Counted from the first letter of the stretch, positions 6,700 through 61,262 are shown. The stretch: 64,000 bases of DNA from an uncultured Syntrophobacterales bacterium (GCA_964519455.1 CAZFIU010000012.1:2775-66774); one strand, 5' to 3'. Numbers and translations: made by a program. The notes: generated from the letters alone by a model not told the origin.

Positions 6700-6757
6700 G
6701 GACTCCCGCCCCCGATCGGGGTCCAGGGCAAGCTTCCGCGGGAACGACGACCGCGGG
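6700..6757. repeat. Degenerate half-copy of the palindromic extragenic repeat family (module B: CCCGCCCCCGATCGGGGTCCAGGGCAAGCTTCCGCGGGAACGAC)
   Basis: The sequence matches the copies at 49071-49136 and 61081-61125. It is intergenic and divergent, between the SDR and AKR genes. Confidence 0.6.
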
Positions 6758-6831
6758 TGATCCGGTCTCTCGCCGGCCCCGGCTCGCGCCCGCGGGGCCG
6801 ATCTGGTACACAGGCGGCGGGAGGATTCTTC

Positions 6832-7770
6832 GTGGAATATCGTCAACTTGGATCTTCGGGCTTGCGGGTTTCGGCCATCGGACTGGGCACCAATCGGTTC
6901 GGTTCGCCGGCACTGCCGCGGGAACAGGTGGGCGCCATCATGGACGCGGCGGTGGAGCTGGGAGTCAACTTCATCGACACTTCCAACAGCTACCAGGGCG
7001 GACGCTCCGAAGAGACGCTGGGGGCGGCCATGAAGGGCCGCCGGGACCGCTTCGTGGTCGCCACCAAGTTCTTCTTCCCCACGGGCGACGGCCCCAACGA
7101 CCGCGGCACGTCGCGCTACCATCTCATGAACGCGGTCGAGGAGAGTCTCCGGCGTCTTCAGACCGACCACATCGACGTCTATTACATCCACCGTTGGGAT
7201 GCATCGACGCCCATCGAGGAGACCCAGCGGGCGCTGGACGACCTGGTCCGCCAGGGGAAGGTCCGCTACATCGGCGCCTCCGATTTCGCGTCGTGGCAAC
7301 TGGCGCGGGCCAACGTCGTTGCCGAGTTCCGCGGCTGGACGGCGTTCGCCGTGCTCCAGTCCCACTATCACATGCTGGAACGGGAGGTGGAACGGGAGGT
7401 GCTTCCCTATTGCGGCGCCCACGGCGTGGGTTTCGTGCCGTATTTCCCGCTGGCCGGCGGGTTTCTCACGGGCAAGTACGTCAAGGGCGAGAAGGCGCCG
7501 CCCGGCTCCCGCGGCGAGACCCAGCGCTACGTGCAGCAATACATGACGGACCGCCACTACGACGCGGTGGCCAGGCTGAAGAGTTGGGCGGAAGCCCGGG
7601 GGAAGGGGATGAACGAGTTGGCGCAGTGCTGGCTGCTGGCGCAGCCGCGGGTGTGCTCGGTGATCTCCGGCGCCACCCGCCTGACGCAGTTCCGGGACAA
7701 TGCCAAGGCCGCGGAATGGGTGCTCTCGTCCCAGGAGCTTGCGGAGGTCGACGAGATGCTGGCCGGGTGA
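6832..7770 (+). CDS. Aldo/keto reductase (AKR) family oxidoreductase
   Basis: GTG start at 6832 with an RBS ggcgggagga. Translation begins VEYRQLGSSGLRVSAIGLGT and continues through typical AKR signatures. Confidence 0.85.
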   Translation: MEYRQLGSSGLRVSAIGLGTNRFGSPALPREQVGAIMDAAVELGVNFIDTSNSYQGGRSEETLGAAMKGRRDRFVVATKFFFPTGDGPNDRGTSRYHLMNAVEESLRRLQTDHIDVYYIHRWDASTPIEETQRALDDLVRQGKVRYIGASDFASWQLARANVVAEFRGWTAFAVLQSHYHMLEREVEREVLPYCGAHGVGFVPYFPLAGGFLTGKYVKGEKAPPGSRGETQRYVQQYMTDRHYDAVARLKSWAEARGKGMNELAQCWLLAQPRVCSVISGATRLTQFRDNAKAAEWVLSSQELAEVDEMLAG

Positions 7771-7894
7771 GTCGGCGCGTGCCGGGTGTCCCGCGTCACC
7801 AACAGCTTGATGAATCCGCGGGCTTCCCTTCCCGTCCGGGCATGCCCGAGGACGCCTCCTCGTTGGCGGAGGCGGCAGGACCGCGACGGTTCCG

Positions 7895-8374
7895 TCAGTG
7901 CAGGGTACGCATGGAAGGCTTGAGCTCGATGACCGCGATCTCGGACTCGTCGTCCGCAGCGGAGTCGGGCTTTCGTCGACGGGCGGCCTCGTTCAGCAAC
8001 AGCACCACCATGCGCCACAACTCCTGCTTTTCCACCGGTGCGTGCAGCAGCAGGTCGGCACCCGCCGCGAGCGCCCGCCGATGTTCCGGCAAAAGAGCAC
8101 CCGACAGGATCAGGATGATCGGAGTGTGCTGGTGCGCGCCCTGTTTCCGGATGGCCCGGCAGAGCTCGAAGCCGTTCAGCGGGCCCTTGAGGAAGGCGTT
8201 CACGAGGAACAGGTTTATCTCCTGCGCTTCGATCCGGGACAGCGCTTCGCGGCCTTCGTTGACGCCCAGGACGTCGATGGCCGGCGACAGTTCCCGCAAG
8301 TGCGTTGACAGCGCTTCCTGCTGGCTCGTGTAGCTGTCGGCAATGAGAATTCTGGGTCGTACGCTGCGTGGCAT
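7895..8374 (-). CDS. Single-domain response regulator (CheY-like receiver), orphan
   Basis: Translation begins MPRSVRPRILIADSYTSQQEAL with the receiver-domain layout. The six-frame ORF carries an N-terminal extension that I judged spurious. Confidence 0.7.
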   Translation of the reverse strand: MPRSVRPRILIADSYTSQQEALSTHLRELSPAIDVLGVNEGREALSRIEAQEINLFLVNAFLKGPLNGFELCRAIRKQGAHQHTPIILILSGALLPEHRRALAAGADLLLHAPVEKQELWRMVVLLLNEAARRRKPDSAADDESEIAVIELKPSMRTLH

Positions 8375-8661
8375 GGCGCTCTCGTGACTGCTCCGCTGAA
8401 GACTGAAAAACCCCGGCCTGAATCCGTGGCCCTGGTCCGACTCCGGCGGGGCCCTCCTCCCCGGGACTCGGACGCGAATCGCATTCAATAATGCGGAACA
8501 GCGGGTGTCAAGACCTCGACCAAAAAAATTTCTTGTCGAGGAGCAACAATTTTCAGTCATCGGCAAGAAGAGAACTAAACGTCGTTTCCCGATGCGTGGT
8601 CTGCATCGGGACACGAGAACCAGCCGAATGCGGGAGGTGGGGCTACGTTGGCGAGTCGTTG

Positions 8662-9471
8662 TCAAACGAGTTGAAAGAACTCGCGCATAGCGACGTGGGC
8701 CGCGTCCGGATTGACGAAGAAGTAGCTGTGGCGTTCTCCGGGCAGCACGACAAGGCGGGCTCCGGGTATGCCTTGTTCGAGAATCTCCGACGAAGTCCGG
8801 TGGGATATGTCGCTGGTGACGTTGCGGTCGTGCTCGCCGACCAGGATCAAGGCAGGGCAGCGGATCTCGCCGAGGCGGCCGCTGGTGTCGTGCCCTTGCC
8901 GTGCCAGCAGGTGGCGGAAGTAGAACTCCACCGGCCCCATGTTGGCCATGCGCACGCGCAGGTAGTTCTCCACGCGGTCCGGGTGACGCTGGACGAACTC
9001 CTCGGTGAATCCGACGAGGATGGAGTGGTCACGGACATATTTCTCGTACCCCCATTCCACCATCTCCGTCGCGATCTTGAGAGGGATGCCCTTGGTGTGG
9101 GGATAGGCCGCCCCGGTGGACGCCAGGACGAGCGCCTTGATCCGCGCGGGATGATCCAATGCCATGACCTGGGCCACCCGGCCGCCCATGGAATGGCCGC
9201 AGACGATGGCCTCGCCCGCGCCGAGGTGGTCAAGGAGGGCCATGGCGTCGTCCGCGAACATCCGGGTCGTGAAGGGTATGGCCGGTTTTCCGGACTGTCC
9301 CGTGCCGCGATAGTCCATGGTGATCACCTGGTGGTCGCGGGCGAACTCCGGCACCTGATGGATTTTCCACACCTCCCCGTCGCAGTGAGTCTCGCTCAGG
9401 AAGAGCAGGGGCGCGCCCTCGCCGTGGACTTCGTAGTAGAGTTCGGTGTCGTTGACGGGTAGCAAGGGCAT
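8662..9471 (-). CDS. Alpha/beta hydrolase fold protein
   Basis: Translation begins MPLLPVNDTELYYEVHGEGAPLLFL and contains the nucleophile elbow GHSMGG. The long Arg-rich N-terminal part of the six-frame ORF was rejected. Confidence 0.8.
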   Translation of the reverse strand: MPLLPVNDTELYYEVHGEGAPLLFLSETHCDGEVWKIHQVPEFARDHQVITMDYRGTGQSGKPAIPFTTRMFADDAMALLDHLGAGEAIVCGHSMGGRVAQVMALDHPARIKALVLASTGAAYPHTKGIPLKIATEMVEWGYEKYVRDHSILVGFTEEFVQRHPDRVENYLRVRMANMGPVEFYFRHLLARQGHDTSGRLGEIRCPALILVGEHDRNVTSDISHRTSSEILEQGIPGARLVVLPGERHSYFFVNPDAAHVAMREFFQLV

Positions 9472-9527
9472 AAGGATCTCCAGCGGCGGTACAGCGGGTC
9501 GGCCGGACGTGAGCCATCCGGGCGCGG

Positions 9528-12536: not shown

Positions 12537-12988
12537 GATTCGGGCTCGCGACTCATCGTCCGCCGAAAGGGCGTTGCCCCGCGCCGGGCTCGCGCGGCGT
12601 TCGGTCGGGGATCGTTGCGGAGTCTACTACGAAACGGGCCGCGAGGCCATGACAGCGGCCCGTGCGACTCGTTGCCGAGGTCCCGCTCATGACAGTGGCG
12701 AAGAACGGGGCAAGCATCGTTCGGTATGGAAGCTATTGAGTCGCAACGATCATCATTTAATTTCTCTTTCGACAAATTGTAACCAAATTGTAATAATCTA
12801 ATGTTAGCTGCGGTAACTGCTGCCTTGACTCACGTTGTTCTGCCTGTCTCTGACATGGGCTCGGGTGCTGCAAACGCGACCGCGAACCCGTATCAGAGAC
12901 AGGAAGACAGCGTGTCCAACCAAAACGGTCGGGGACGGACCCCTCCTCCCGCGTCCCCGGCCGCCTTCCTCTTCCAATCGAGACCTCA

Positions 12989-14067
12989 TGACGGTTTTTG
13001 ACGGCAGGCTCAGCCTTCAGTTCGTCACCCACCTGGCGAACCACTACACGGTCAACCGTTTTGTGGAACTGGCCGCCCTGGCCCGCGAACGCGGCTTCGA
13101 ACGTATCTGGCTCAATGACAACGCACGCTACCGGAGCCAGGTGGTGGTCCTTTCCGCCATCGCCGCGCGCGTGCCCATCGGCGTGGGTACGGCCGTGCTG
13201 GTGCCCTACTTCCATCATCCCATCGAGGTGGTGGACTCGCTGGCGGCTCTTTCGGAGCTGAGCGACGGGCGCGAAGTGGGGTTCGGGCTGGCGCGAGGTT
13301 CCACCACCCAGACGCCGCAGCACGTGACCATGCACCGGCCCCTGGCGCTGGTGCGGGAGTTGGCCGTGTTCGTGTCGCGGGCGCTGGCCGGGGAGAGCGT
13401 GAACTACGCGGACTTCCCCGTGCTGTGCGAGCACTACCACTTCAATCCCGCGGGCAGGTTCAAGCTCGCGTTCACGCCCAAGTCCCCCGTGGTCATCTAT
13501 TCGGGCGGCAACGGCCCCCGGTCGCTGCGCATGGGCGGCCGGGTCATGGACGGCCTCATCAGCTCGGGGACCTTCATTCCCATGCTTCGGGCGGGCCGGC
13601 TCAAGGGGATGATCGAGAGGGCCGAGGCCGGGGCGCGCAGCGCCGATCCCGGCAAGACCCTGCGCAAGATGGTGGAGCTCAACGTGTCGGTATCGCGCGA
13701 CCGGGACGCGGCCATGGAGTTCCCCAAGCGCCAGGTGGCCCACTCGATCCCCCAGTGGGAGTCGCTCGGGTTCACACCCGACGAGTACGCCCGGCTCGGC
13801 GTGGAGCGGGGGCGCGTGCTCGATCTCAAGGACGCCTTCGCCCATGGCGCCACCATCGAGGAGGCCGCGGCCCTCGTTACCGAGCAGATGGTCCTGTCGT
13901 ATTACGTCGCCGGCACCCCCACCGAGGTCGCCGACCAGGTCGTGGAGCTGGCCGTCCAGGCCCGGGAGATGGGCTACCACGAGATCGCCTTCGCCAAGCT
14001 CGGCCCCGACTACGAGGAGGCCATCGAGATGCTGGCGGAAAGTGTCATGCCACGGCTGAACGGGTAG
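12989..14067 (+). CDS. LLM class flavin-dependent oxidoreductase, tandem paralog 1
   Basis: Translation begins MTVFDGRLSLQFVTHLANHYTVNRFVELAALARERGFERIWLNDN. It is about 75% identical to the downstream paralog. Confidence 0.85.
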
Positions 14068-14108
14068 GCTCGACACCCGGTTCCGGTCGTTCGGAGGAAA
14101 GGGATTCC

Positions 14109-15188
14109 ATGGCGGCATTCGAGGGAAAGCTCGGTCTCCAGTTCGTCATCCACTTGGCGAACCAGTACACGGTGAACCAACTGGTGGAGCTGGCCGAACT
14201 GGCGCACAGGCGCGGCTTCGAGCGCATCTGGGTCAACGACAACGCGCGTTACCGGAGTCAGGTGGTCGTGCTCTCGGCCATCGCGGCGCGCGTCCCCATC
14301 GGCATCGGCACCGCCATCCTGGTGCCTTATCTGCATCATCCCATCGAAGTCGTGGACTCGCTCGCGGCGCTGTCCGAACTGAGCGAGGGGCGCGAGATAG
14401 GGTTCGGGCTCGCGCGCGGCGATCTGGCGCAGACCCCGCAGCACGTGGCCGTGGACCGGCCCATCTCGCTGGTGCGGGAACTGGCCGTGTTCGCGCGGCG
14501 CGCGCTCGCCGGCGAGCGGGTTCCCTACGGCGAATTCCCGGTGCTGTGCGAATACTACCACCTGAATCCCCGGGGCAGGTTCGAGTTGGCGTTCACGCCC
14601 AAGTCTCCGGTGGTGATCTATTCCGGCGGCAACGGACCCCAATCGCTGCGCATGGGCGGACAGGCGATGGACGGGCTCATCAGCTCCGGCACTTTCATCC
14701 CCATGCTCCGGGCGGGCCGTTTGAAGGAGATGCACGAGATGATCGAGGCCGGCGCCCGCAGCGTCGACCCCGACAAGAAGCTGCGCAAGATGGTGGAACT
14801 CAACGTGTCGATAGCGCGCGACCGGGACGCCGCCATCGAGTTTCCCAAGCGCCAGGTGTCCCACTCCATCCTCCAGTGGGAGGCGCTCGGGTTCACCGCC
14901 GAAGAGTACGACCGGCTGGGCGTGGAGCGGCAGAAGGTGTTCGACCTGAAGGAGGCCTTCGCCCGCGGCGCCACCGTCGAGGAAGCCGCGGAGATGGTGA
15001 CCGAGGAGATGGTCCTCAACTACTACGTCGCCGGGCGTCCCGAGGAAGTGGCCGATCAGATCGTGGAGTTGGCGGGAGAGGCCGGGGAACTGGGATACGA
15101 TGAGATCGCCTTCGCCAAGCTCGGCCCCGACTACGGGGAAGCCATCGAAATGCTGGCGGAGAGTGTGATGCCGCGCCTGCGGGGATAG
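14109..15188 (+). CDS. LLM class flavin-dependent oxidoreductase, tandem paralog 2
   Basis: Translation begins MAAFEGKLGLQFVIHLANQYTVNQLVELAELAHRRGFERIWVNDN. An RBS ggaggaaaggg lies upstream. Confidence 0.85.
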   Translation: MAAFEGKLGLQFVIHLANQYTVNQLVELAELAHRRGFERIWVNDNARYRSQVVVLSAIAARVPIGIGTAILVPYLHHPIEVVDSLAALSELSEGREIGFGLARGDLAQTPQHVAVDRPISLVRELAVFARRALAGERVPYGEFPVLCEYYHLNPRGRFELAFTPKSPVVIYSGGNGPQSLRMGGQAMDGLISSGTFIPMLRAGRLKEMHEMIEAGARSVDPDKKLRKMVELNVSIARDRDAAIEFPKRQVSHSILQWEALGFTAEEYDRLGVERQKVFDLKEAFARGATVEEAAEMVTEEMVLNYYVAGRPEEVADQIVELAGEAGELGYDEIAFAKLGPDYGEAIEMLAESVMPRLRG

Positions 15189-17575: not shown

Positions 17576-17630
17576 CTCCAGCCTCTCCGCACATCCTGCC
17601 GCCCAATTGACCGGACACCACACCAGCGTT

Positions 17631-17700
17631 CGTATTCCCGGCCCTCCAGTTTGTATTCCCGGCCCTCCAATACGTCATTCCCGGCCCTCCAATACATTGG
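17631..17700. repeat. Three tandem copies of a ~21-bp unit GT(C)ATTCCCGGCCCTCCAATAC
   Basis: The copies read gtattcccggccctccag / gtattcccggccctccaatac / gtcattcccggccctccaatac. They are intergenic, between the convergent esterase and DMT transporter genes. Confidence 0.7.
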
Positions 17701-17782
17701 GGGGCGTAAGTCTCCTTTTCATTGCCCCCATTGGGTAGGGCTTGCCGCGCATCACGGACTTTCTTGCAACATCGGGGTTTGA

Positions 17783-20634: not shown

Positions 20635-20672
20635 GGGCCGGCCCGCGGGTCGCGCACGAAAGGAGAAGGAAC

Positions 20673-46333: not shown

Positions 46334-46420
46334 CGATGCGTCCGACCAGAGTGTCCTTCCCGCCCCCCGGACCGTCAACCCCGCGGAACAGGCTTTGTCG
46401 AGACTCCCAAGGCAGAGACC

Positions 46421-46460
46421 CTTGAGTCGTCATTCCCGCTTTTCGCGGGACTGACGCTTC
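46421..46460. repeat. Single hairpin copy of the repeat family: GTCATTCCCGCTTTTCGCGGGACTGAC
   Basis: The palindrome is read directly. It is intergenic, between the M20 and M20D genes. Confidence 0.6.
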
Positions 46461-46469
46461 AAGTCTCCT

Positions 46470-47777: not shown

Positions 47778-47908
47778 AATCTACCAATTTTCCTGGGAAG
47801 CCGCTGGTCAATTGTGCTGGCGCCTTTTGTCCCGAGCGTAACGAAACGCAGTCGAAGGGCACCGTCTCGCTCGGCGGCAATCGATCAGAGTCTTCCATCA
47901 GTGGATCT

Positions 47909-48883: not shown

Positions 48884-49007
48884 GGCCGACAGAGTAGAAC
48901 AACGGCGATGGGAATGAAAGGAGACGAGAGCGGCCCATCCGCCGTAATTTCTGCGGAGCCGGCGGTGTCAACACTCCGCTCGGCCATGAGGTGGCACCGT
49001 CACCCCG

Positions 49008-49172
49008 GATCGTGATTCCCGCGGAACGGGCTGTGTCAAAAGGCTGCTTCCTGGCGACTACACCCCAATCCGTCATTCCCGCGAAAGCTTGCCCCCGCCC
49101 CCGATCGGGGTCGAGGGCAAGCTTTCGCGGGAATGACGGATTGGGGTGTAGCAGGATTCCGTATCTACCAGA
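49008..49172. repeat. Composite palindromic repeat: reverse-complement module C (49011-49047); large module-B palindrome CTACACCCCAATCCGTCATTCCCGCGAAAGCTTGCCC...GGGCAAGCTTTCGCGGGAATGACGGATTGGGGTGTAG centred near 49105; reverse-complement module-A tail
   Basis: A perfect long inverted repeat is read directly. It is intergenic. Confidence 0.8.
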
Positions 49173-49306
49173 GATCACTGAACAAGATTTATCTTCATAT
49201 CAATGACGGTTTGGGGCGCGGGGTGTTCTTAGTCTGGGTGGAGTTTCGACACAGTCTGGCAAGCGGGAGTCCACGGGTGGGGTGCTGCTCGTACGAGTGG
49301 TTTAGT

Positions 49307-50416
49307 TTAGGGGAATCCCGTCTCGAGGACAGACTGAAGTTCGGCCGGGCCTGTCCCCTCCAACCCCATGTCGGCCAGGGTAAGGCCGTCGCGACGGTAG
49401 TCGGTACTATTCATCTCCGAGGCCAGGGTGATGAGCGCGTCGATGACAGGAGTTTCCACCCCCAGCAGGGAGGCCAACTCGGCCATGGGCACGAGGCCGT
49501 AGCCCACGTCCTCGTGCACGTAGCGGTGATCGTGGGTGGTGGGCGACACGATGGTCTTGTTGGGCTCGCTTTCCTGCGTGGCCTGGTGGACGTCGCCGCT
49601 TGCGAGGGCAGCGTCGGAGGTGAGGCCGGCGGCGTGGAAGATCTCCACGAAGGTGCGGGGCCGGAGCCCCAGCGCTTGCACGACGGCCAGCCGTTCCCGG
49701 TCCACCCCTTCGATCATGCGCGCCACCGAGGGCGAGAGGGCCTCCCGGTAGAACAGCATCGTGCCGCCGTGCTGTTCGATCCAGCCGGCGTTCCCCACCA
49801 TGCCCGCGGGGTGCATGATGGCGTTGATGTTGGAGAGGCCGGTCTCCAGCACGTTGCGCGCGGGCACGACGTTGGGGAACACCGCGGCCATGTCCGGCAG
49901 GATCTCCGGTCCATGGACGGCGGGGAAGGCCGCGCAGCCGAGGTTGGCGGTGCGGCGGTACACTTCCACCCGCGCCGGCCCCGCCATGCGACAGATGCAG
50001 GTCAGGGTGACGGTCTCGCAGCAGCGGACGGGGACTCGGCAATCCGCGCGCCGCAGTTCGTGCACGAAGTGCAGGCTGCCCCCGGTCTGACCCGGGTTGA
50101 GGTGGACGATCTGCTCCTCGGTCAGGATCGGCGCCAGAGAGCGCGCCATGAACTCGTGGGCCACCGCCGGAGCGGCGATGGTGACGAGGTCGGCGCCGAC
50201 GACGGCCTCTTCCAACGCCGTCGTAATCCGGTCCGGCCGTCCGAAGCTCTCCCGGCCGCTCTCCACCAGTTCGATCCCGCCGCGCTGCACCAGCGGTGCC
50301 AGCGTCTTCTCCGAACGGGAGTAGAGCCGCGTCTCGAAACCCCTGATGGCAAGGTCCGCCGCGGTGGCGCAACCGCCGTTGCCCGCGCCGAGAATTGCTA
50401 TCGTCTGGATGCTCAT
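49307..50416 (-). CDS. NAD/NADP-dependent octopine/nopaline (opine) dehydrogenase family protein
   Basis: Translation begins with an N-terminal Rossmann fold, IAILGAGNGG. The protein is 369 aa. Confidence 0.8.
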   Translation of the reverse strand: MSIQTIAILGAGNGGCATAADLAIRGFETRLYSRSEKTLAPLVQRGGIELVESGRESFGRPDRITTALEEAVVGADLVTIAAPAVAHEFMARSLAPILTEEQIVHLNPGQTGGSLHFVHELRRADCRVPVRCCETVTLTCICRMAGPARVEVYRRTANLGCAAFPAVHGPEILPDMAAVFPNVVPARNVLETGLSNINAIMHPAGMVGNAGWIEQHGGTMLFYREALSPSVARMIEGVDRERLAVVQALGLRPRTFVEIFHAAGLTSDAALASGDVHQATQESEPNKTIVSPTTHDHRYVHEDVGYGLVPMAELASLLGVETPVIDALITLASEMNSTDYRRDGLTLADMGLEGTGPAELQSVLETGFP

Positions 50417-50429
50417 GGTTCCGAAGAGT

Positions 50430-50537
50430 CAGTCCCGCGAACGCCTGACGCGGGAATGACGATTCTGGGGGGTGGTGCCATTTCGTGTCCGAGCAGAGTC
50501 TTGACACACCCGCTTCCGCGGGAGTGACGACTCGGGG
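50430..50537. repeat. Repeat family copy: GTCAGTCCCGCGAACGCCTGACGCGGGAATGACG plus module-C variant CTTGACACACCCGCTTCCGCGGGAGTGACG
   Basis: It is intergenic within a same-strand gene run. Confidence 0.7.
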
Positions 50538-50568
50538 CTTGATTGCCATCCCAGGGACGCAGTCCCCG

Positions 50569-51726: not shown

Positions 51727-51736
51727 CTTGGCCTCG

Positions 51737-52952: not shown

Positions 52953-53010
52953 GAGTTTCGACGCAGCCTGTTCCGCGGGAATGACGGAGGAGGGTGGGAA
53001 TGACATGACG
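52953..53010. repeat. Module C copy: GTTTCGACGCAGCCTGTTCCGCGGGAATGACGGAGG
   Basis: It is intergenic and divergent, between the M24 and OCD genes. Confidence 0.7.
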
Positions 53011-53115
53011 GCCATGTCCGGATGGCCCGAGCCCGGAATCCAGGAGTCACTTTTCAACGGAAGTCCTATCGTATAGGAAGTAAGGCTTGATCCAACCGCA
53101 TCGAAAGGAACACGC

Positions 53116-54204
53116 ATGCTGCTCATCAACAACCAGGAAGTCGAAGAGCTGATGGACATGAAGGCCTGTCTCGAAGCACTGGAGACGGGTTACGAGGACC
53201 TCGCGCGCAACGACGCGGTGTACCGGCCGCGGCTCGACGTGTGGGTGCCGTGCGAGCGGCCCGACGGCTATTACCGCTGGGGCACCATGGAGGGCGCGAG
53301 CCGGACCATCGGCACGTTCGCCATCCGCATGAAGTCCGACATCGTGCACTGGCCCGGCGGCGACACCGAGGAGAAGTATTGCATGGAGCCGGGCAACTAC
53401 TGCGGGCTCATCATGGTCTTCAGCGTGGCCAACGGCGAGCCCCTGGCCATCGTCAACGACGGCGTGCTGCAGCACATGCGCGTGGGCGGGTGCGCCGGCC
53501 TTGGCGCCAAGCTGCTGGCGCGCGAGGACGCCTCCGTGGTGGGCATGTTCGGCTCGGGCGGTATGGCCGAGACCTATCTCATGGCCTTCAACGAGGTGCG
53601 GAAGCTCGAGGAAGTACGGGTCTACAGTCCCACCAAGGCCAACCGGGAGCGGTACGCGGGCAAGATGAGCGAGATGCTGGGGCTCAAGGTCACGGCCATG
53701 GACCGGCCCGAGGACGTGGTGCGCGGGGCGGACATCATCTCGGCGTGCACGGATTCCACGCGGGTGGTGTTCGACAATCCCGAGTGGCTCAAGCGCGGCG
53801 CCCATGTCACCTGCGTGCGCGCCTGCGAGATCGGCCCGCGGGTGGTGGAGGTGTGCGGCGTTTCCGTCAAGCTCGGGCGCAACACGGTGGTGACCACGGA
53901 CGAGGGGATGGTGCGGCTCCACGGCAACGTGGGTTACGTGGCGGGGCAGCCCGAGGAGATCGCGCGCATCCCGAACCCGGTGCAGGACAACTACACCGGG
54001 GACTACTTCCACTACTTCATGGACGTGAAGCTCGGCCGCCAGCCGGGCCGGACGAACGACGACCAGACCACCTTCTTCATCAACGCCGGCACCCAGGGGC
54101 TCCAGTTCGCCGCCTGCGCCGGCCGCGTCTACCAGATGGCCAGGGAGAAGGGGCTCGGGCGTGAGCTGCCCACGGAGTGGTTCACCCAGGACATCCGGGA
54201 CTGA
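53116..54204 (+). CDS. Ornithine cyclodeaminase/mu-crystallin family protein, paralog 1
   Basis: Translation has a Rossmann region GMFGSGGMAE within the OCD family layout. Confidence 0.85.
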   Translation: MLLINNQEVEELMDMKACLEALETGYEDLARNDAVYRPRLDVWVPCERPDGYYRWGTMEGASRTIGTFAIRMKSDIVHWPGGDTEEKYCMEPGNYCGLIMVFSVANGEPLAIVNDGVLQHMRVGGCAGLGAKLLAREDASVVGMFGSGGMAETYLMAFNEVRKLEEVRVYSPTKANRERYAGKMSEMLGLKVTAMDRPEDVVRGADIISACTDSTRVVFDNPEWLKRGAHVTCVRACEIGPRVVEVCGVSVKLGRNTVVTTDEGMVRLHGNVGYVAGQPEEIARIPNPVQDNYTGDYFHYFMDVKLGRQPGRTNDDQTTFFINAGTQGLQFAACAGRVYQMAREKGLGRELPTEWFTQDIRD

Positions 54205-54266
54205 GGCGGGGTCTTGGGAGCACCGGTGCCGAGGCGGGCTTCAAGCGGCCCCGCGCCCGTGACGTG

Positions 54267-55436
54267 ATGTCGGCCGACAAGGACTCCCGGCGGACCGGCG
54301 CGCCAGGGGCGTGCTTCCTGATGGCGCTCTTGGCGGCGCTTGTGCTGCTCGTCGGGTGCGGCCTCCGGCAGGACGGCCCGGCGCCGGGGGCGCCGGAAGC
54401 GATCCGTGACGATCTGGAACCCGAGTCCCTCCGCCGAGCCGTGGCCGGGAGCCTCCGGTTCCTTCACAAGGTCCCCGGAGAGTCGCGGTTGGGCGAGTGG
54501 CCCCGGGCGGTTACCGCGGCGGACCTGCGTTCGTCGCTGGCCGAGTTCCTGGAGATCCTGGACCGTACGGCGGAAGCGGACCCGTCCTGGCCGGATCGGG
54601 TGGCGGAACGGTTCGAGTTCCATCCCGCGCCGGCACGGTCGTCGGGGGACCCGGTCTTGTTCACCGGTTACTATCAGCCGGTGATCGAGGCGAGCGGAGT
54701 CCGCACGGAGGAGTACCGCTACCCGGTCTACCGGGCACCCGGCGCGCCGGGCTCGCGGCCCGGTACCGAGGGGTCCGCGGCCGCGTACCCGTCGCGGCAC
54801 GAGATCGACGCATTGGGAGTGCTGAAAGGCAAGGGCTACGAGATCGCGTGGCTGCGGGACCCGGTGGACCGCTTCTTCCTGCACATCCAGGGCTCCGGGC
54901 TCCTGCGCATGACCGACGGGCGCGAGTTGCCGCTCAACTTCGCCGCTTCCAACGGCAGGCCGTACACCAGCATCGGCAAGGTCCTGATCGACGAGGGCAA
55001 GGTCGACCGGGAGTCCATGTCGATGCAGCGCATTCGCGCCTGGCTGGCGGAGTTCCCGGAGGAGCGCGAGGCGCTGTTCGCGCGCAACGAGCGCTACATC
55101 TTCTTCCGGCTGGGGGAGGAGGGTCCGCTCGGAAGCCTCGGAGTGCCGCTGACCGCCGGCCGCTCCGTGGCCACCGATCCCGCGGTCTATCCCAAGGGGG
55201 CGTTGCTGTACGTGGAGACGCGGTTGCCGGTGGTGGATGACACCGGCGCGCTGGCGGGGTGGCGTCCGGTGCGGCGTTTCGTCGTCAACCAGGATGCCGG
55301 CGCGGCCATCCGTGGCCCGGGGCGCGCGGACCTTTATTTCGGCACGGGTGCCGCGGCCGGTGCGCGGGCGGGATACATGCAGAGCGAGGGAAGGCTTTAT
55401 CTGTTGATGAAGCGAAGATCGGCGCCCTTGGGTTGA
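54267..55436 (+). CDS. mltA: Murein transglycosylase A (MltA) family lipoprotein
   Basis: A possible lipobox LLVGC lies in the N-terminal region. Translation shows the MltA 3D-domain signature ...GALLYVETRLP.... An alternative start is at 54321. Confidence 0.75.
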   Translation: MSADKDSRRTGAPGACFLMALLAALVLLVGCGLRQDGPAPGAPEAIRDDLEPESLRRAVAGSLRFLHKVPGESRLGEWPRAVTAADLRSSLAEFLEILDRTAEADPSWPDRVAERFEFHPAPARSSGDPVLFTGYYQPVIEASGVRTEEYRYPVYRAPGAPGSRPGTEGSAAAYPSRHEIDALGVLKGKGYEIAWLRDPVDRFFLHIQGSGLLRMTDGRELPLNFAASNGRPYTSIGKVLIDEGKVDRESMSMQRIRAWLAEFPEEREALFARNERYIFFRLGEEGPLGSLGVPLTAGRSVATDPAVYPKGALLYVETRLPVVDDTGALAGWRPVRRFVVNQDAGAAIRGPGRADLYFGTGAAAGARAGYMQSEGRLYLLMKRRSAPLG

Positions 55437-55478
55437 AGGACGTCGGGGTATTGCGAATCAATCGGTCAGGAGGCAATC

Positions 55479-56567
55479 ATGGCATCGGTTTTGTTGTTGG
55501 GTCCGGAAGACATGAACGGGCTCATCACCATGAAGGAAGCGGTGGACGCCATGGAGCGGGGATACCTGGACTGGGCGAAGAACCGCGAGCTGGGGGCGCT
55601 GCGGCGCCGCGTCCACTCCGTGGCCAACGCCCGGGTCACGGTGCACCAGGGAGCGCCCGACACCGCCGGGGTGACGGGGGTCCTGACCCACTGCGAACAC
55701 GTCATGATCCACGACAACGGCATCCAGACCTACCAGACCCGCGGCCGTCCGGTGCGGGTGATGTTCGACGGCAACAACGCCGAGCTCAAGTGCATCACGG
55801 TGGGCGAGGTGCGGGTGGCGGAACTGCCCGACGCCAACAACGTGGTCAACGTCCAGACCGCTTGCTCCACGGCCGTGGGCATCAAGCACCTGGCGCGCCA
55901 GAGCTCCAAGGTGGTGGGGGTGCTGGGGTCCCGGGCCCAGGCGGAGTGCCAGTTGCTCGCCACCAAGGCGGTGGTCCCGGGCATCGAGGAGGCCAGGGTC
56001 TACAGTCCCAATCCGGAGAACCGCACCAGGTTCGCCGCCAAGATGACCGAGCTGCTGGACATGGAGGTGCGCCCGGTGTCCACCAACCGCGAAGCGGTCC
56101 AGGGCGTGGACATCCTGCTGTCGGTGACCAACTCCAACGTCCCCACCTTCGACGGCGACTGGCTCGAGCCCGGCGTGCACCTGTGCTCCATCGTCTCCAG
56201 CAACATCGGCCTCATGCGCGGCGGCTTCATCCAGCAGAAGCGGCGCGAGGTGGACGATAAGACGCTCAGGCGCTGCGACATCATCGTGTGCAACTCCAAG
56301 CGCCAGGAGATCCTGGACGAGCCCGGCGTGTTGTGGGACCCGGTGCAGCAGGGCGTCATCACCTGGGACGACGTGTGGGACCTGGGCGAGGTGCTCGCGG
56401 GGCAGGTGCCGGGCCGCACGTCCGAGGAGCAGATCAGCTTCTACAAGAACAACGCTTTCTGGGGCGTGGGCGACCAGGTCATCGGCCGGTTGCTCTACGA
56501 CCGCGCCGTGGAGAAGGGGCTCGGCACCGAGCTGCCCATCGACGGCGCCGAGTACCGCGAAGCGTAA
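55479..56567 (+). CDS. Ornithine cyclodeaminase/mu-crystallin family protein, paralog 2
   Basis: Translation has a Rossmann region GVLGSRAQAE within the OCD family layout. Confidence 0.85.
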   Translation: MASVLLLGPEDMNGLITMKEAVDAMERGYLDWAKNRELGALRRRVHSVANARVTVHQGAPDTAGVTGVLTHCEHVMIHDNGIQTYQTRGRPVRVMFDGNNAELKCITVGEVRVAELPDANNVVNVQTACSTAVGIKHLARQSSKVVGVLGSRAQAECQLLATKAVVPGIEEARVYSPNPENRTRFAAKMTELLDMEVRPVSTNREAVQGVDILLSVTNSNVPTFDGDWLEPGVHLCSIVSSNIGLMRGGFIQQKRREVDDKTLRRCDIIVCNSKRQEILDEPGVLWDPVQQGVITWDDVWDLGEVLAGQVPGRTSEEQISFYKNNAFWGVGDQVIGRLLYDRAVEKGLGTELPIDGAEYREA

Positions 56568-56719
56568 GCGCGCCGGACGGTCCTTCGACTTCGCTGCGCC
56601 AGGCCTGTCCCGAGCCCCGTCGAGGGGCTCGAGACGGACGGAGTTGAGGCGCGCTACGGTTCGCCTTGAGCGCATCCACCCTGGCGGAGCGGAGTCGAAG
56701 GGTACCTCGCCTACCTCGC

Positions 56720-57118
56720 CTACGTGGCATTGTTCTTTCTTTCGACGATCTCGATGCGCACGTCGTCCGGCGCGCGCACGAAGGCGATCTTGAGGCCGGG
56801 CCGGAGCAGCCGGGGCTCGGAGAAGAACTCAGCGCCGCGCTTGCGCAACTCCGCGGCGGCCTCCTCCAGGTCGTCCACCCGAAGCCCGAAGTGGTCGAGG
56901 CCGATGTAGGGGCGGTCCGGCGCGGACGGAACGTCCTGGTCGGGCTGTGCCTTGGCGATGCAGACGGTCATGCCGTCGATGTCCAGGTCGACACGGGGAC
57001 GCCCGTCGGTCTGAATCGTTTCCACGATCTTTGCGTCGAACACATCGTGATAGTACTTGGCCGTGGCCTCGGGGTCCCGGCTCCTGAGGTGGATGTGGTC
57101 CTGTCTGTACCTGGGCAT
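56720..57118 (-). CDS. VOC family protein (glyoxalase/bleomycin-resistance/dioxygenase fold)
   Basis: Translation begins MPRYRQDHIHLRSRDPEATAKYY and contains GLDHFGLRVDD, the VOC beta-alpha-beta-beta-beta module. Confidence 0.75.
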   Translation of the reverse strand: MPRYRQDHIHLRSRDPEATAKYYHDVFDAKIVETIQTDGRPRVDLDIDGMTVCIAKAQPDQDVPSAPDRPYIGLDHFGLRVDDLEEAAAELRKRGAEFFSEPRLLRPGLKIAFVRAPDDVRIEIVERKNNAT

Positions 57119-57133
57119 GGGTGTCCTCCTCTG

Positions 57134-57205
57134 TTAGTTACGGAATCCCGCTATACCCCAACGAGTCATTCCCGCGAAAGCGGGAATCCAGGGGTGGGGA
57201 GGGGG
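57134..57205. repeat. Module A copy: TTAGTTACGGAATCCCGCTATACCCCAACGAGTCATTCCCGCGAAAGCGGGAATCCAGGGGTGGGGAGGGGG
   Basis: It is near-identical to 27957-28030 and overlaps the 3' end of the MFS ORF. Confidence 0.8.
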
Positions 57206-58413
57206 TCCTTGGGCGAGTCTCCCGAGCGCAGCGCCAGCGGCGCCATCAGGCCCACGCTCACGAAGGACAGGATGCCCATGGCCTGGAACAGCGTGGACAT
57301 CTCCGTGTACGCCAGCAGCAGGCCGATACCGGAGACTCCGGCGGTCTTGGCGACCTGCTGGGTCAGGCGGTCGAGGGAGATGACCCCGCCGCGCAGCTCC
57401 AGCGGCGCGTTCTGCGTGAGCAGGCTCTTCTGCATGGGCGAGATGATTCCGTTGGCGAGGCCGTAGAGCAACAGCACCGGGACCAGGGTGCCGGTGCCGG
57501 AGGCGAAGGACACGGCCAGCAGCGCGAGGCCGCTCACCACGAAGGCGCCCAGCACCAGACGTCCCTTGTCCCATGCACGCGCGAGGCGTCCGGCCTGGCT
57601 CGACGTCACCATGGCGCCCACGGCGTGGAAGGAGCGCAGCAGGCCCGCGCCGGCGGTGGAGAAACCGTGGGCGCGCACCAGGTACAGCGGCAGATAGGTG
57701 AAGAAGCCGTAGTCCAGGAAGAAGCGCAGGAAGCCGGCGGCGAAGGCCAGCAGCAGGCGCGGGGCGCGCACCACCTTGCCCACGTCCCTGAGGTACTGGC
57801 CCGTGGACGCCGGCGCCGTGCCGCGGGTCTCCGGCATCCACGCCCAGGCGAGCAGGCCCAGTGGGATGGCGGCGGCGTAGATGAGGAAGGGCCAGCGCCA
57901 TCCCACCAGCGCCAGCGCGCCGCCCAGGGGCGGCAGCACCACTTCGCCCACCCGGTCGATGAAGACCTTCAGCCCCTGGCCGGAGACCTCGCGGCGGCCT
58001 TCCAGCAGGTCGCCGATGAGCACGATGGTGAGCGGAATCACCGCGCTGAAGCCGACGCCCTGGAGGGTGCGCAGCGCCAGCACCCATCCGAAGCTCGGCG
58101 CGAACGCCACCGCGGCGCCGGCCGCGCCGAACAGCAGCAGCCCGCCCAGCAGCAGCGGGCGCCTGCCGTAGCGGTCGGCGGCGATCCCGAAAAGCGGCGC
58201 CAGCACGATGGCGGGGGCGGTGTAGACCGCGATGACGAGCCCGACCTCCGCGTCGGTGATGCCGAACGGCTCCAGCATGACCGGGAGGACCTGCTGGACG
58301 ATGTTCACGCCCATGATCACCAGCAGGCTCGAGGCGTAGACGAGTCCCAGGGAACGCCGCAGGTCGGCGGGAAGCTCGCCCAGGTCGAACAGCGAAGTGG
58401 GAGAGAATCGCAT
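57166..58413 (-). CDS. MFS transporter
   Basis: The protein is about 415 aa with 12 predicted transmembrane spans and shows the MFS motif GIAADRYGRRP. Confidence 0.8.
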   Translation of the reverse strand: MRFSPTSLFDLGELPADLRRSLGLVYASSLLVIMGVNIVQQVLPVMLEPFGITDAEVGLVIAVYTAPAIVLAPLFGIAADRYGRRPLLLGGLLLFGAAGAAVAFAPSFGWVLALRTLQGVGFSAVIPLTIVLIGDLLEGRREVSGQGLKVFIDRVGEVVLPPLGGALALVGWRWPFLIYAAAIPLGLLAWAWMPETRGTAPASTGQYLRDVGKVVRAPRLLLAFAAGFLRFFLDYGFFTYLPLYLVRAHGFSTAGAGLLRSFHAVGAMVTSSQAGRLARAWDKGRLVLGAFVVSGLALLAVSFASGTGTLVPVLLLYGLANGIISPMQKSLLTQNAPLELRGGVISLDRLTQQVAKTAGVSGIGLLLAYTEMSTLFQAMGILSFVSVGLMAPLALRSGDSPKDPLPTPGFPLSRE

Positions 58414-58691
58414 CAAGCCCCTCACTGAAACATCGGCTCACACATCGGCTCACGGCGCCGGTTTCACAGGTCGATTTCAGCCAACCTCCATGTTGCGGTT
58501 GACCGCGACTGTCCGGGGGGCCTCCATCGAAGTGGATCCAGGTCCCCGATCAACCTGTCCTTACGCGCGAATCCGCGTGGCGGCAAGAGTACCTTGCCGG
58601 TAACGCGAAATCCTGCGCATATTATAGCCATGGGTTTGCATTCCAACGGGCGGGTTACGGTTGCGAAGACGGTGCGACGGGAGGCGCCGGA

Positions 58692-59057: not shown

Positions 59058-60094
59058 CGGAGCGGGTGACACGCGGGCGGGCGCACGCCGGTGCATCGTA
59101 CGGCGGACGCACCCGGCGTGCCGCGCGCCGCGCACGCCCGGCGGCCGCCGTCGCGGTGCTGTCGGCGCTCTCGTGGCCGGGGACTCTGCTGGCCCACGGA
59201 GGCCACGGAGCCGACGAGCCGCTGCCGTTCGACGCGCTGATCCTGCTGTTCGGCATGATGCCCTCGGGACTGCGCCTGGACATCATGCTGGTGCTGGCGC
59301 TGGCGGCGGGCGTCTACCTCACCGGCTGGGTGCGGCTGCGGGGGCAGGCGGAAGGCGCCGCCACGGTGACCGGGCTGCTGCTCTACCTGGGCGGCATCGC
59401 CGCGCTGGCGGTGGCTTTGGTGTCGCCGGTGGACCGTCTCGCGGCCGAGCGCCTCAGCATGCACATGGTGCAGCACATCCTGCTGCTGATGATCGCGCCC
59501 TTGGGCATTCTCCTGGCCAATCCCTTCCCGGTGGTGCTGTGGGGCCTCCCCGGAGGCCTTCGCGAGAGCTTCGCCGGGCTGTTTCGCGAGGGACGCATGG
59601 GGCGGTCCGTGCTGACCGCGCTCACGTCGATGCCGGTGGCCTGGAGCCTCTACGTGGTCAACCTGTGGGGGTGGCACCATCCGGCTTTGTACCAGGCGGC
59701 GCTGCGCCACTGGTGGGTGCACGATCTCGAACACTGGCTGTTCTTCACCACCGCGGTGCTCTTCTGGTGGCCCATCCTGAACGTGGCGCCGCTCTACCGC
59801 CCGGCGCGGCCGCTGGGGACAAGGGTGGTCTACCTCATCGCGGCGACCTTGCAGAACACGCTCCTGGGCATGGCCATCGCCGTGCCCGAGCGCGTGCTGT
59901 ACCCGTTCTACGCCGCCGTCCCCGGCCTCGCGGCGCTGAGCCCGATCCAGGACCAGGGGCTCGGCGGCGGCATCATGTGGGTCAGCGGCCACATGTACGT
60001 GATCCCGATCCTGGTGCTGGTGGCGCGCCGGCTCATCTCCGAGGACGAGGCCGCCAATGCCCGGGACGGCGTGGCGGGCGCGGGGGTTGGTTGA
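59056..60094 (+). CDS. Cytochrome c oxidase assembly factor CtaG (caa3-type, Cox-assembly membrane protein)
   Basis: Translation carries conserved polytopic membrane core segments: MHMVQHILLLMIAPLGILLANPFP...WSLYVVNLWGWHHPALYQAALRHWWVHDLEHWLFFTTAVLFWWPILN. The start is uncertain: GTG at 59056 or 59068. Confidence 0.65.
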
Positions 60095-60287
60095 GATGGC
60101 CTGCCGTAGCCTGATTTCATGGTACTTGCGGATGACAGGGTGTTTGCGTCCGTCGACTTCGTACACCCTCCGGCCAGCGCGGTGTCCGGCACGCGCGGAG
60201 CGAACGGGCAGGGTCTTGTCCGGCCGTATCTCTCGAGTGTCGCGGCCGACGGGAAGGGCGCCGGGCGCTTGCATCCGGTTGCCGGCG

Positions 60288-60953
60288 ATGGCGTTGCTCT
60301 TCGTGTTTTCGTGCGGCCCGGCCTGGAGCGCGGTGGAGCCGGAAAGCCTGCGCAGGCTCGGATTCCTGGTCCAGGAGGGGTTCGAGGAAGCCCCGTCGTT
60401 CAAGACGGTGGACGCGGCCGGGAAAGCAGCCACCCTGGAGGACTACCGCGGCAGGGTGGTGTTGCTCAACTTCTGGGCCACGTGGTGTCCGCCGTGCCGG
60501 CTCGAGATGCCGGACATGGAGCGGCTCTACCAGGAGTTCCGGGGGCAGGGCCTCGAAGTCGTCGCGGTGAACTTCATGGAGACGGCGGATGAGGTGAAGG
60601 CGTTCGCGGAAGAGCAGAAGCTCACTTATCCCATGTTGATGGACCCGCGCAGCGAGATCGCCGGGCAGTACGGCGTGATGCGGCTCCCGGAAACGGTTCT
60701 CATCGGCCGCCAGGGCGAGGTCCTCGGCAAGAGCATCGGGTTCAAGGCCTGGTACAAGGACGACGTGCGTGAGTTGATGGCGGCGCTGCTGGGCGACGGC
60801 GCGGCCCTGGCCGCCGTTCCGGCGGGCGCCGTCGCGGAAACAGAGCCCGCGGGCAACCACGATTCGGCGTATCTCGCCGGCGCCATCGTCCTGGTGATCG
60901 GTGTCTATCTCGCGTTTCGGCGACGGCGCGGCCGTGGAGGCGCGGGGAGCTAG
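60288..60953 (+). CDS. TlpA/ResA family thiol:disulfide oxidoreductase (thioredoxin-like), with C-terminal hydrophobic anchor
   Basis: Translation shows the redoxin active site WATWCPPCRLEMP. The N-terminus MALLFVFSCG looks like a signal or lipoprotein sequence. Confidence 0.75.
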   Translation: MALLFVFSCGPAWSAVEPESLRRLGFLVQEGFEEAPSFKTVDAAGKAATLEDYRGRVVLLNFWATWCPPCRLEMPDMERLYQEFRGQGLEVVAVNFMETADEVKAFAEEQKLTYPMLMDPRSEIAGQYGVMRLPETVLIGRQGEVLGKSIGFKAWYKDDVRELMAALLGDGAALAAVPAGAVAETEPAGNHDSAYLAGAIVLVIGVYLAFRRRRGRGGAGS

Positions 60954-61074
60954 GATCCTCCGCCGCTCCGCTTACCTGGATTGCGTTTCCCAGGCTGTGT
61001 CAAGACGCTCCAGGCGGTAACGTCACTAATCAGACCGTGTGAAAACACCATCTTGACGAGGCAATAACCCCCAG

Positions 61075-61262
61075 AAACGTCATTCCCGCGAAAGCTTGCC
61101 CTCGACCCCGATCGGGGGCGGGAATCCAGGCGGGGTGAGGCGGAATACGCCCATTCGGCCTCTCCCCACCCATGGATTCCCGCTTTCGCGGGAATGACGA
61201 TTCGAGAGGTCTCCGCCCTATGCGGTGTTGACACAGCCTGTTGCGCGGGAATGACGAATGCG
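61075..61262. repeat. Composite repeat: module B/A palindrome CGTCATTCCCGCGAAAGCTTGCCCTCGACCCCGATCGGGGGCGGGAATCCAGGCGGGGTGAGG...CCCATGGATTCCCGCTTTCGCGGGAATGACG plus module C GTTGACACAGCCTGTTGCGCGGGAATGACG (61226-61256)
   Basis: Read directly. It is intergenic, between the TlpA and lgt genes. Confidence 0.8.

Follow-up and report, generated by a model that had tools for sequence, protein, structure and literature searches.

Intergenic arrays of NTS/SRM-type hairpins with a NIME-like layout in an uncultured sponge-associated bacterium

The 64-kb stretch of DNA analysed here (the window) carries palindromic repeats that recur between genes at about one locus per 7 kb, which raises the question of what these repeats are and what multiplies and reshuffles them. 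The reading that we prefer, and to which we give a probability of roughly 60%, is that they are intergenic arrays of DNA hairpins of the NTS/SRM type in a layout like that of the Neisseria NIMEs, and that the hairpins would be extruded, cut by an Ssn nuclease encoded elsewhere in the genome, and reshuffled at a shared arm. Judged from its sequence, the repeat appears to be of a kind already known, the dRS3/NTS of Neisseria, and what appears to be new is the host, an uncultured sponge-associated bacterium.

Core motif and locus structure

The arm C-GTCATTCCCGCG is the conserved unit, and together with GCGGGAATCC it makes an 8-bp stem with a GNAA loop. The 12-nt arm GTCATTCCCGCG has 11 exact copies in the window, all within the loci listed below, where an arithmetic estimate gives about 0.01 expected by chance. 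The 25-mer core GTCATTCCCGCGAAAGCGGGAATCC, allowing up to three mismatches, matches at four places in the window (27988+, 28052-, 57165+ and 61174-) versus none in 100 dinucleotide shuffles; the observation made from the sequence alone is confirmed. The degenerate SRM pattern of PMC11893778 finds 2 sites versus 0.81 in shuffles, which is not significant on its own; the pattern leaves out the copies with a GGAA loop. The core matches the published NTS motif CGTCATTCCCGCGMAVGCGGGAATCYRG, an oriented and longer form of the Neisseria dRS3 repeat (PMC11893778), and dRS3 itself (ATTCCC-N8-GGGAAT) is nested inside it, being exact at four sites (27991, 28054, 57168 and 61176). Under the search criterion of PMC11893778, by which a canonical NTS has at most one mismatch to the motif, three copies qualify in the 64-kb window (28050-, 57164+ and 61172-), and the copy at 27987+ has two mismatches to the consensus. 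The remaining window copies (B, C and arm-to-arm hairpins), which are the majority, are arm-only derivatives.

Modules B, C and an AT-rich leader are lineage-specific spacer units, each of which starts at the arm. The window and 43 related loci together have 186 exact copies of the arm, which is followed by the rest of an NTS in 94, by C in 65, by B in 13 and by other forms in 14. The base before the arm is C in 171 of the 186, so that the repeat is headed by C-GTCATT in those copies, and no GTAG-type head occurs. The exact 25-mer is also present in more than 120 stretches from MAGs and genomes of many phyla, and in at least 100 viral contigs, with conserved flanks (Y preceding GTC; A and then G or T following CC). 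This conservation across phyla of both core and flanks fits constraint by a conserved protein, and the identical NTS core in so distant a host supports a cross-phylum constraint on the hairpin.

All eight loci that had been listed from the sequence hold the repeats described for them (8/8), and modules A, B and C are as first given. One decayed copy, at about 17600-17730, had been missed, and two extents change: the 49-kb array extends over about 48940-49215, and the 46-kb array begins at position 46372. The features are as follows.

6677-6757, minus strand: half of a module B, now decayed, whose arm GTCGTTCCCGCG (6737-6748) is degenerate; it lies in the spacer from which an SDR gene (5830-6594, minus) and an aldo/keto reductase gene (about 6880-7770, plus) diverge.
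17600-17730, plus strand: decayed relic in which tandem GTATTCCCGGCCCTCCA(A/G)T units occur with GTCATTCCCGGC and a tail of GTCTCCTTTTCATT; an array in locus L059 of a Binatia MAG is similar.
27918-27986, plus strand: AT-rich leader module, CGTCATCGATAGAACAATAAAGTGTTGTTCAGTGATTTCTGGTAGTTACGGAATCCCGCTACACCCC, beginning directly after the stop of a cytidylyltransferase-like gene.
27987-28077, no strand assigned: head-to-head pair of NTS hairpins (27987-28014, plus; 28050-28077, minus) with a GGGGTGGGG/CCCCACCCC stem between them, a 91-nt perfect-type palindrome.
28078-28138, minus strand: spacer and module C (arm 28126-28137, then AAACAGACCGTGTCAAAC), ending 29 nt from the stop of an asparaginase gene.
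46372-46460, plus strand: degenerate module C (46374-46406), spacer and short arm-to-arm hairpin GTCATTCCCGCTTTTCGCGGGACTGAC (46429-46455); an M20 peptidase gene lies on either side.
48940-49215, no strand assigned: decayed C/spacer (48940-49008), module C (49011-49040, plus), B palindrome (49058-49151) and inverted leader (49138-49215, minus).
50428-50537, no strand assigned: arm-to-arm hairpin (50428-50460), then spacer and module C on the minus strand (arm 50517-50528).
52953-53010, minus strand: solo module C (arm 52974-52985) and a second arm, which is decayed (52993-53004); the M24 peptidase and ornithine cyclodeaminase genes diverge from this spacer.
57130-57215, plus strand: truncated leader (57130-57163), NTS (57164-57191) and half of the GGGGTGGGG stem, overlapping the last ~13 codons and stop of an MFS gene.
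61075-61262, no strand assigned: NTS with a 28-nt B-type loop insertion (61078-61133, plus), stem-loop, NTS (61172-61199, minus), spacer and module C (arm 61244-61255, minus), between AhpC/TSA and Lgt genes.

The loci separate genes that have Pfam support, at junctions of all three kinds (convergent, divergent and same-strand), as had been proposed. The accompanying claim that they occur only between genes holds for the arrays, which are intergenic and contain all 11 exact arm copies, and fails at the edges: one copy overlaps the final codons of the MFS ORF, and there may be an overlap between the Lgt start and module C at 61225-61256. When folded as DNA, the core forms a hairpin of -9 kcal/mol (z -3.2), the double-NTS palindrome at 27985-28080 reaches -51 kcal/mol (z -12) and the B palindrome at 49055-49155 reaches -58 kcal/mol (z -15); the short palindromes at 46421 and 50425 have z of about -5, and neither module C nor the leader folds alone. 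In a small, hand-picked set of variants 98.9% of cells are paired and three of eight stem pairs show double (compensatory) changes, one example being the form ATTCCGGC/GCCGGAAT that the relative L134 carries.

Turnover among relatives and likeness to NIMEs

The complete unit, as it occurs in relatives, is a ~235 bp nested palindrome that consists of C, a spacer, NTS, a stem-loop, inverted NTS, a spacer and inverted C. Arrays occupy syntenic intergenic sites with differing content and length when the window is compared with L163 (about 91% identical) and L134 (80-90%), sites are filled or empty between L059 and L139, and the strain L123 (99.6% identical) differs by a 60-nt indel, with 60 nt of extra leader at 57131/57132. 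The polymorphism of sites that the sequence-only reading proposed to look for is present, as filled, empty or remodelled arrays. The 388 kb of related loci contain 90 exact NTS copies, and independent short-read contigs terminate within the repeats, both of which indicate that the repeats are multi-copy. The leader is found three times in the 64-kb window versus zero times in the 388 kb of related loci, which are roughly 90% identical to it where they align.

This turnover matches the behaviour of NIMEs (Parkhill 2000; Bentley 2007, PMC1797815), whose arrays likewise sit at syntenic intergenic sites and vary in unit number and length among relatives. Also shared are the exact dRS3 and the presence, between repeats, of spacer modules of 30-75 nt that belong to few families. 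The RS spacers of NIMEs form families of ~50-150 bp, each bounded by dRS3. The spacer families of the window and its relatives are C with its spacer (about 70 nt), B and the leader (about 70 nt), and many of them are bounded by the arm alone and not by a complete dRS3. Unlike in NIMEs, boundaries are often half-sites, the arrays are short (60-280 bp) and their units nest as long palindromes, and the host is a bacterium distant from Neisseria. Outside that genus NIME arrays were, according to the 2007 account (PMC1797815), absent; our results extend NIME-like mosaic arrays, once thought specific to Neisseria, to a distant uncultured sponge symbiont with an identical NTS core. How arrays grow was left open by the work on Ssn (PMC11893778), and this lineage, in which genomes of 80-99.6% identity differ in whether a site is filled, empty or remodelled, offers clean natural comparisons that could show it.

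The candidate partner nuclease

The sole partner of the NTS sequence demonstrated by experiment is SsnA of Neisseria, and ssnA is the gene associated with the motif across bacteria (PMC11893778). SsnA is a GIY-YIG nuclease whose binding to NTS as single-stranded DNA has a Kd of 4.5 nM; it cuts just upstream and does not bind the RNA form (Chenal 2025, PMC11893778). The Ssn family (cd10448, about 95 aa) is encoded by 81% of genomes with more than 200 SRMs, usually from a gene that is itself flanked by the motif (PMC11893778). The arrays described here resemble that system (Chenal et al., Nat Commun 2025, PMC11893778) in the 28-nt motif with oriented flanks (CGTC before the palindrome, CYRG after), in the 8-bp stem and 4-nt loop, and in being intergenic, present in many copies and carried by a host-associated bacterium; NTS/SRM is enriched in symbionts (PMC11893778). 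They differ in that most copies are arm-only derivatives within larger nested palindromes, that modules B, C and the leader are not described in PMC11893778, and that the host lineage (Deltaproteobacteria or Ca. Binatia according to MAG records) lies outside the RefSeq genomes surveyed there. Counting against the preferred reading, the arm-only window copies are without the C that follows the palindrome, the base that mattered most when SsnA binding was examined in Neisseria (PMC11893778).

A further difference is that the sequence examined has no ssn: a profile HMM search (E<=1) that covered the 64-kb window, the syntenic locus L134 (21 kb) and the 388 kb of related loci found no ssn or other GIY-YIG gene. 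This negative is a weak one, given that ssn is present in no more than 4 of 120 and 2 of 100 of the NTS-centred loci from elsewhere (2-3%). Ssn-like GIY-YIG genes directly flanked by NTS or its variants do occur in L076, L077, L044 and L103. Since ssn is absent from the window and from about 410 kb of related sequence, the partner enzyme in this genome is one that we infer, together with its cleavage of the hairpins and any cellular role. On the reading that we prefer, the hairpin would extrude from DNA that has become single-stranded in the course of replication, repair or uptake, and would be recognised by an Ssn-family GIY-YIG endonuclease of single-stranded DNA encoded elsewhere in the genome, with the cut probably placed a few nt 5' of the arm. 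Recombination or repair at the shared arm could then gain, lose or reshuffle units, with the expected result that arrays stay at fixed intergenic sites as their content changes. In copies other than the NTS hairpin the arm is joined to B, C or leader modules, and the combined units nest as palindromes of up to about 235 bp.

Alternative explanations and effects on annotation

The nuclease by itself leaves the multiplication of the repeats unexplained. In principle, the NTS hairpin could have become, in this lineage, the building block of a self-propagating element, the ~235 bp nested palindrome (arm plus C, spacer, NTS, stem, inverted NTS, spacer, inverted C), which would multiply in a genome that has no Ssn. 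An undescribed enzyme might drive this, or else copying at the shared arm, either fold-back or hairpin-primed. We consider this unlikely; if true, it would be a route of amplification distinct from the RAYT, DDE and Ssn models, and would account for species-specific bursts such as that of the leader module.

It is also improbable that the repeats are a MITE, that is, a non-autonomous transposon of ~235 bp whose 30-bp TIRs are the arm and module C, whose transposase lies elsewhere, and of which the window copies are truncated or rearranged insertions. Such an element would suit the full-length nested palindromes of L139, L145/L170 and L171/L176, which measure 232-235 bp (295 bp in one pair of loci) and whose inverted ends are nearly identical, as well as the presence or absence of whole arrays among close relatives and the amplified leader. 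In the palindromic unit with its 30-bp inverted ends, in being present or absent among relatives, and in sometimes donating stop codons, the repeats are also like the Correia elements of Neisseria. However, there is no target-site duplication at the ends of the 232-295-bp units, no parent IS and no transposase or IS in about 470 kb, where the multi-copy proteins are amidohydrolases. The interior consists of NTS hairpins, the supposed TIR starts with the same arm as the internal NTS, this arm heads unrelated modules too, and solo C modules and hybrids are common.

Growth of the arrays by repeated recombination with incoming DNA is a quite unlikely explanation of the whole. A Piv/IS110-like transposase puts filamentous prophages into dRS3 in Neisseria; the recombination model was proposed, and the prophage integration reported, in the NIME literature (PMC1797815). 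The window copies contain the exact dRS3 sub-motif, modules switch inside a shared GCGGGAAT core (for example 61079 versus 49072), and NTS occurs in many viral contigs. Against this, no recombinase, integrase or prophage gene adjoins any array in the window or the syntenic loci, and the recombinase model was never demonstrated for the growth of NIMEs.

The sequence-only reading had favoured REP/BIME-like or MITE-like elements, which stands in so far as the repeats are an intergenic palindromic mosaic family, and had suggested a RAYT/IS200-like driver, which is not supported. REP/BIMEs of E. coli, Pseudomonas and Stenotrophomonas (SMAG), spread and maintained by a RAYT (an IS200/IS605-like Y1 transposase), are similarly dense, short extragenic palindromes in alternating orientation with mosaic linkers, and the Ssn paper itself draws the analogy (PMC11893778). 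The consensus is unrelated, being that of NTS with its exact dRS3, whose reported partner is a GIY-YIG nuclease. A GTAG-type 5' tetranucleotide is a hallmark of RAYT-linked REPs. The head found here is CGTC, not of the GTAG type, which sets the core apart from RAYT-type REPs. Pfam scans of the window ORFs show no RAYT, Y1, IS200-like or other transposase, and about 410 kb of related sequence has no RAYT or transposase gene; we regard a RAYT as very unlikely.

That the hairpins are kept as terminators or as stabilising structures at transcript 3' ends is highly improbable, since the very stable stems and the position of several arrays after gene stops (27918, 49215, 57166 and 61075) are set against copies in divergent promoter regions (6677 and 52953), sequence conserved on both strands and across phyla whatever the neighbouring genes, an RNA form that SsnA does not bind, no T-tract after any array, and no intrinsic terminator or sigma-70 promoter called at the repeats of the window, where transcription termination had been one of the functions first suggested.

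The repeats have practical consequences as well. They break short-read assemblies, and they create spurious or altered ORF ends. The MFS ORF (57166-58425, minus) runs into the repeat, so that its tail reads ...PLPTPGFPLSRE* and its stop is the TGA of GGGAATGAC. The predicted peptide debris is indeed present in ORFs, as SFPRK and IPASAGMT frames and as the MFS tail GFPLSRE*.

The repeat family and its identity with NTS/dRS3

The repeats are an NTS/dRS3-type hairpin family set in mosaic arrays like the Neisseria intergenic mosaic elements (NIMEs, dRS3 repeats joined with spacers), here in a new host far from Neisseria. The family is real and well above chance. In a window with a G+C content of about 67%, the 25-mer GTCATTCCCGCGAAAGCGGGAATCC has four matches at three or fewer mismatches (27988+, 28052-, 57165+ and 61174-) versus none in 100 dinucleotide shuffles, so the enrichment over chance expected by the sequence-only reading was observed for the core within the window. 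The 12-nt arm, or repeat half, GTCATTCCCGCG occurs in 11 exact copies, all of them within the eight loci listed by that reading, and in eight more copies with one mismatch, six of which lie in the same loci. The sequences at all eight loci agree with their earlier description, and repeat finding recovered the claimed modules A, B and C together with long inverted pairs between loci. The list is not complete, as it missed a decayed copy at about 17600-17730, and the array at 49 kb extends further than described, spanning about 48940-49215.

A full-text literature search with the arm sequence found the study of Chenal et al. 2025 (PMC11893778), in which the Neisseria Transformation Sequence (NTS) is defined as CGTCATTCCCGCGMAVGCGGGAATCYRG, a longer and oriented form of the 20-bp dRS3 repeat ATTCCC-N8-GGGAAT. 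Under the match criterion of that study, which allows up to one mismatch, the window holds three NTS copies; a fourth has two mismatches, and the exact dRS3 is present in all four. The degenerate "SRM" pattern of the same study (PMC11893778) finds two window sites versus 0.81 in shuffles, and the number is this small because the pattern leaves out the copies with a GGAA loop.

With genes located by third-position G+C and Pfam, the neighbours of the arrays are ordinary metabolic and housekeeping genes. The arrays do lie at convergent (27.9 kb), divergent (6.7 and 53.0 kb) and same-strand junctions as had been proposed, but the claim that they occur only between genes fails at an MFS transporter ORF, 57166-58425 (-), which ends inside an NTS with the TGA of GGGAATGAC as its stop. 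The repeat (57166-57205) supplies the last 13 or so codons and the stop codon of this ORF, and the resulting C-terminal tail, ending in PLPTPGFPLSRE before the stop, is wholly unlike that of the ortholog in the syntenic relative L134.

Array grammar, lineage and turnover

Scanning metagenomes with a pattern for module C gave 43 loci of the window's lineage, 388 kb in all, which contain 90 exact NTS 25-mers and 175 exact arms. For these loci and the window together (n = 186 exact arms), the arm is followed by NTS in 94 cases, by module C in 65, by module B in 13 and by other sequence in 14, and it is preceded by C in 171 of the 186. A complete unit forms a nested palindrome 232-235 bp long (295 bp in one locus pair), in the order arm plus C, spacer, NTS(+), a GGGGTGG stem-loop, NTS(-), a second spacer, and C plus arm inverted. 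No target-site duplication was visible in the complete 232-295-bp units inspected. The window arrays are partial or hybrid forms of this unit, two examples being:

27918-28138: array with the leader module in place of the left C and spacer
61078-61256: array with a B-type insertion of 28 nt in the loop of its left NTS

The leader has three copies in the window versus none in the 388 kb of relatives, and a metagenome contig search with the leader pattern gave no matches.

By exact-protein look-up, the window belongs to an uncultured bacterium for which the MAG proteins carry the NCBI label "Deltaproteobacteria bacterium". [quoted passage not shown] Two MAG loci are labelled Ca. Binatia: L059, whose genes are 88-94% identical in nucleotide sequence to those of the related metagenome loci, and L104, which has repeat modules in common with them. 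A transfer of modules B and C across phyla was suggested by L030 (JAJDVR010000071.1), a 4.7-kb contig labelled Gemmatimonadetes. This contig is probably mis-binned, as its genes are 85-93% identical in nucleotide sequence to those of the lineage to which L059 belongs. Since L030 and L059 both share genes (85-94%) with the related loci and thus belong to the same lineage, modules B and C and the spacers are restricted to one lineage, and the part found across phyla is the NTS core only.

The data suggest that units are gained and lost at the arm that they share. Short-read contigs stop inside repeats (L124 corresponds to 52958-57185 and L127 to 49122-50496, and L128-L132 all begin at about 49087), as expected for a multi-copy family. 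The comparison with related genomes that the sequence-only reading called for showed sites that are filled, empty or remodelled. The strain L123, 99.6% identical to the window, has 60 additional nt of leader at 57131/57132 (L123 56-115); this is the AT-rich part of the leader, it separates the repeat from the ribosome-binding site of a glyoxalase gene, and a CT dinucleotide stands at each boundary of the indel. The syntenic locus L163 (about 91% identity) has arrays in the same spacers with different modules, and its OctDH/MR_MLE spacer is without a 70-nt spacer-plus-C unit, the junction falling at the arm. L059 and L139 differ by an array of about 395 nt that only one of them has, and a solo C module in L059 stands where L139 has a 232-bp unit. 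The locus L134 (80-90% identity) is part of a 4.66-Mb contig. NTS is missing there from four of the spacers, and a compensatory stem variant, ATTCCGGC...GCCGGAAT (also written CGTCATTCCGGCG...GCCGGAATCCAG), with the central C-G pair flipped to G-C on both sides, occurs in two orthologous spacers:

L134 8648-8754: stem-variant site, syntenic with window 50417-50568
L134 12367-12440: stem-variant site, syntenic with window 46334-46469

The variant suggests that the repeat changed in concert across the genome, and its binding protein may have changed with it. The arrays of this lineage resemble Neisseria NIME arrays, which likewise stand at syntenic positions with variable content, with recombination suspected at dRS3 (PMC1797815).

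Two other spacers differ between the relatives. The divergent ornithine cyclodeaminase/M24 peptidase spacer holds only a solo module C in the window, about 2.2 kb extra in L163, and an inserted PIN/PhdYeFM toxin-antitoxin pair in L134 (5475-6190). At 47790-47905, in the spacer that separates the M20 peptidase gene from the luciferase-like gene, the window has about 98 nt that L163 lacks; this segment contains an inverted repeat of its own, CCGAGCG...CGCTCGG, lies outside the NTS family and has one weak match in L176, one of the 43 related loci.

Distribution of the core and its putative partner enzyme

The exact 25-mer, with A or G allowed at loop position 1, was found in more than 120 stretches of a species-representative genome collection, a lower bound. 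Among the matches listed, the hosts include Proteobacteria, Chloroflexota, CPR groups, Planctomycetota, Acidobacteriota, Nitrospirota, Omnitrophota, a Rickettsia endosymbiont and others. The flanks are conserved over 154 instances (C/T at -1, A at +1, G/T at +2), and adjacent copies are mostly head-to-head, 41-92 nt apart (14 of 23), an arrangement also seen at 27987-28077. At least 100 IMG/VR viral or prophage contigs, ranging in G+C from 32% to 71%, carry the exact 25-mer as well.

The best-supported candidate partner, from the literature and sequence identity, would be an Ssn-family single-stranded DNA nuclease. SsnA of N. meningitidis is a 94-aa single-domain GIY-YIG protein (cd10448) that binds the NTS as single-stranded DNA only (Kd 4.5 nM) and cleaves a few nucleotides upstream of it; the GTC before the palindrome is important for cutting and the C after it for binding (PMC11893778). 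SRMs occur in the flanks of 71% of ssnA homologs, and of the genomes that have over 200 SRMs, 81% encode Ssn (PMC11893778). Ssn-like genes were present in four of 120 NTS-bearing genome loci and two of 100 viral loci (L199 and L242), and in the genome loci L076 and L077 they are directly flanked by NTS and stem variants. Phages may serve as vehicles for the motif and its nuclease.

Neither tblastn, queried with E. coli YhbQ and an Ssn-like protein from locus L044, nor a profile HMM derived from 119 homologs detected an Ssn/GIY-YIG gene in the window, L134 or the 43 related loci. This absence carries little weight because ssn is present in only 2-3% of NTS-centred loci elsewhere. A protein-database search for Ssn, over all lineages, gave 7,963 matches.

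The sequence-only reading had placed the repeats with REP/BIME- or MITE-like elements and proposed a RAYT/IS200-like driver. The structural analogy is reasonable; the RAYT link is not supported, as the core matches NTS and Pfam scans of about 60 ORFs showed no transposase, whether RAYT, IS200-like, IS110/Piv or of another kind. A transposase present in many copies was also considered for the related loci, where the largest protein clusters are Amidohydro_2 paralogs.

Folding, RNA-level readings and other features of the window

Folded as single-stranded DNA, the core forms an 8-bp stem with a 4-nt loop (-9 kcal/mol, z -3.2). Larger structures are the double-NTS unit at 27985-28080 (-51 kcal/mol, z -12), the B palindrome (-58 kcal/mol, z -15) and the array at 61075-61200 (-52 kcal/mol, z -9.8); two short arm-to-arm hairpins reach a z of about -5, and module C and the leader are each unstructured alone. 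In a small, hand-picked variant alignment, three of eight stem pairs are altered on both sides and 98.9% of cells are still paired.

The proposed role in transcription termination found no support in a consensus scan, which called no window repeat as an intrinsic terminator. Module C (TTGACA...) was considered as a sigma-70 promoter, and no repeat was called as one in the consensus scan. Rfam and tRNA scans of the window, and a plasmid megablast of 27-31 kb, gave no matches.

The region 8450-9500, with lower G+C (0.64), a minus-strand codon-position signal, no clean ORF and no Pfam match, may be a degraded or frameshifted gene. Just after Lgt, an 88-aa ORF at 62136-62402 (-) with high third-position G+C is not GIY-YIG and gave no match to Pfam. 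An MltA gene lies between two ornithine cyclodeaminase genes (53116-56567), and two UbiD-family decarboxylase paralogs are found at 25279-26724 and 41746-43248. Tandem paralogs are present at 12835-15188 (luciferase-like monooxygenases, 80-82% nucleotide identity) and at 19546-21758 (Amidohydro_2 genes, 72-78%).
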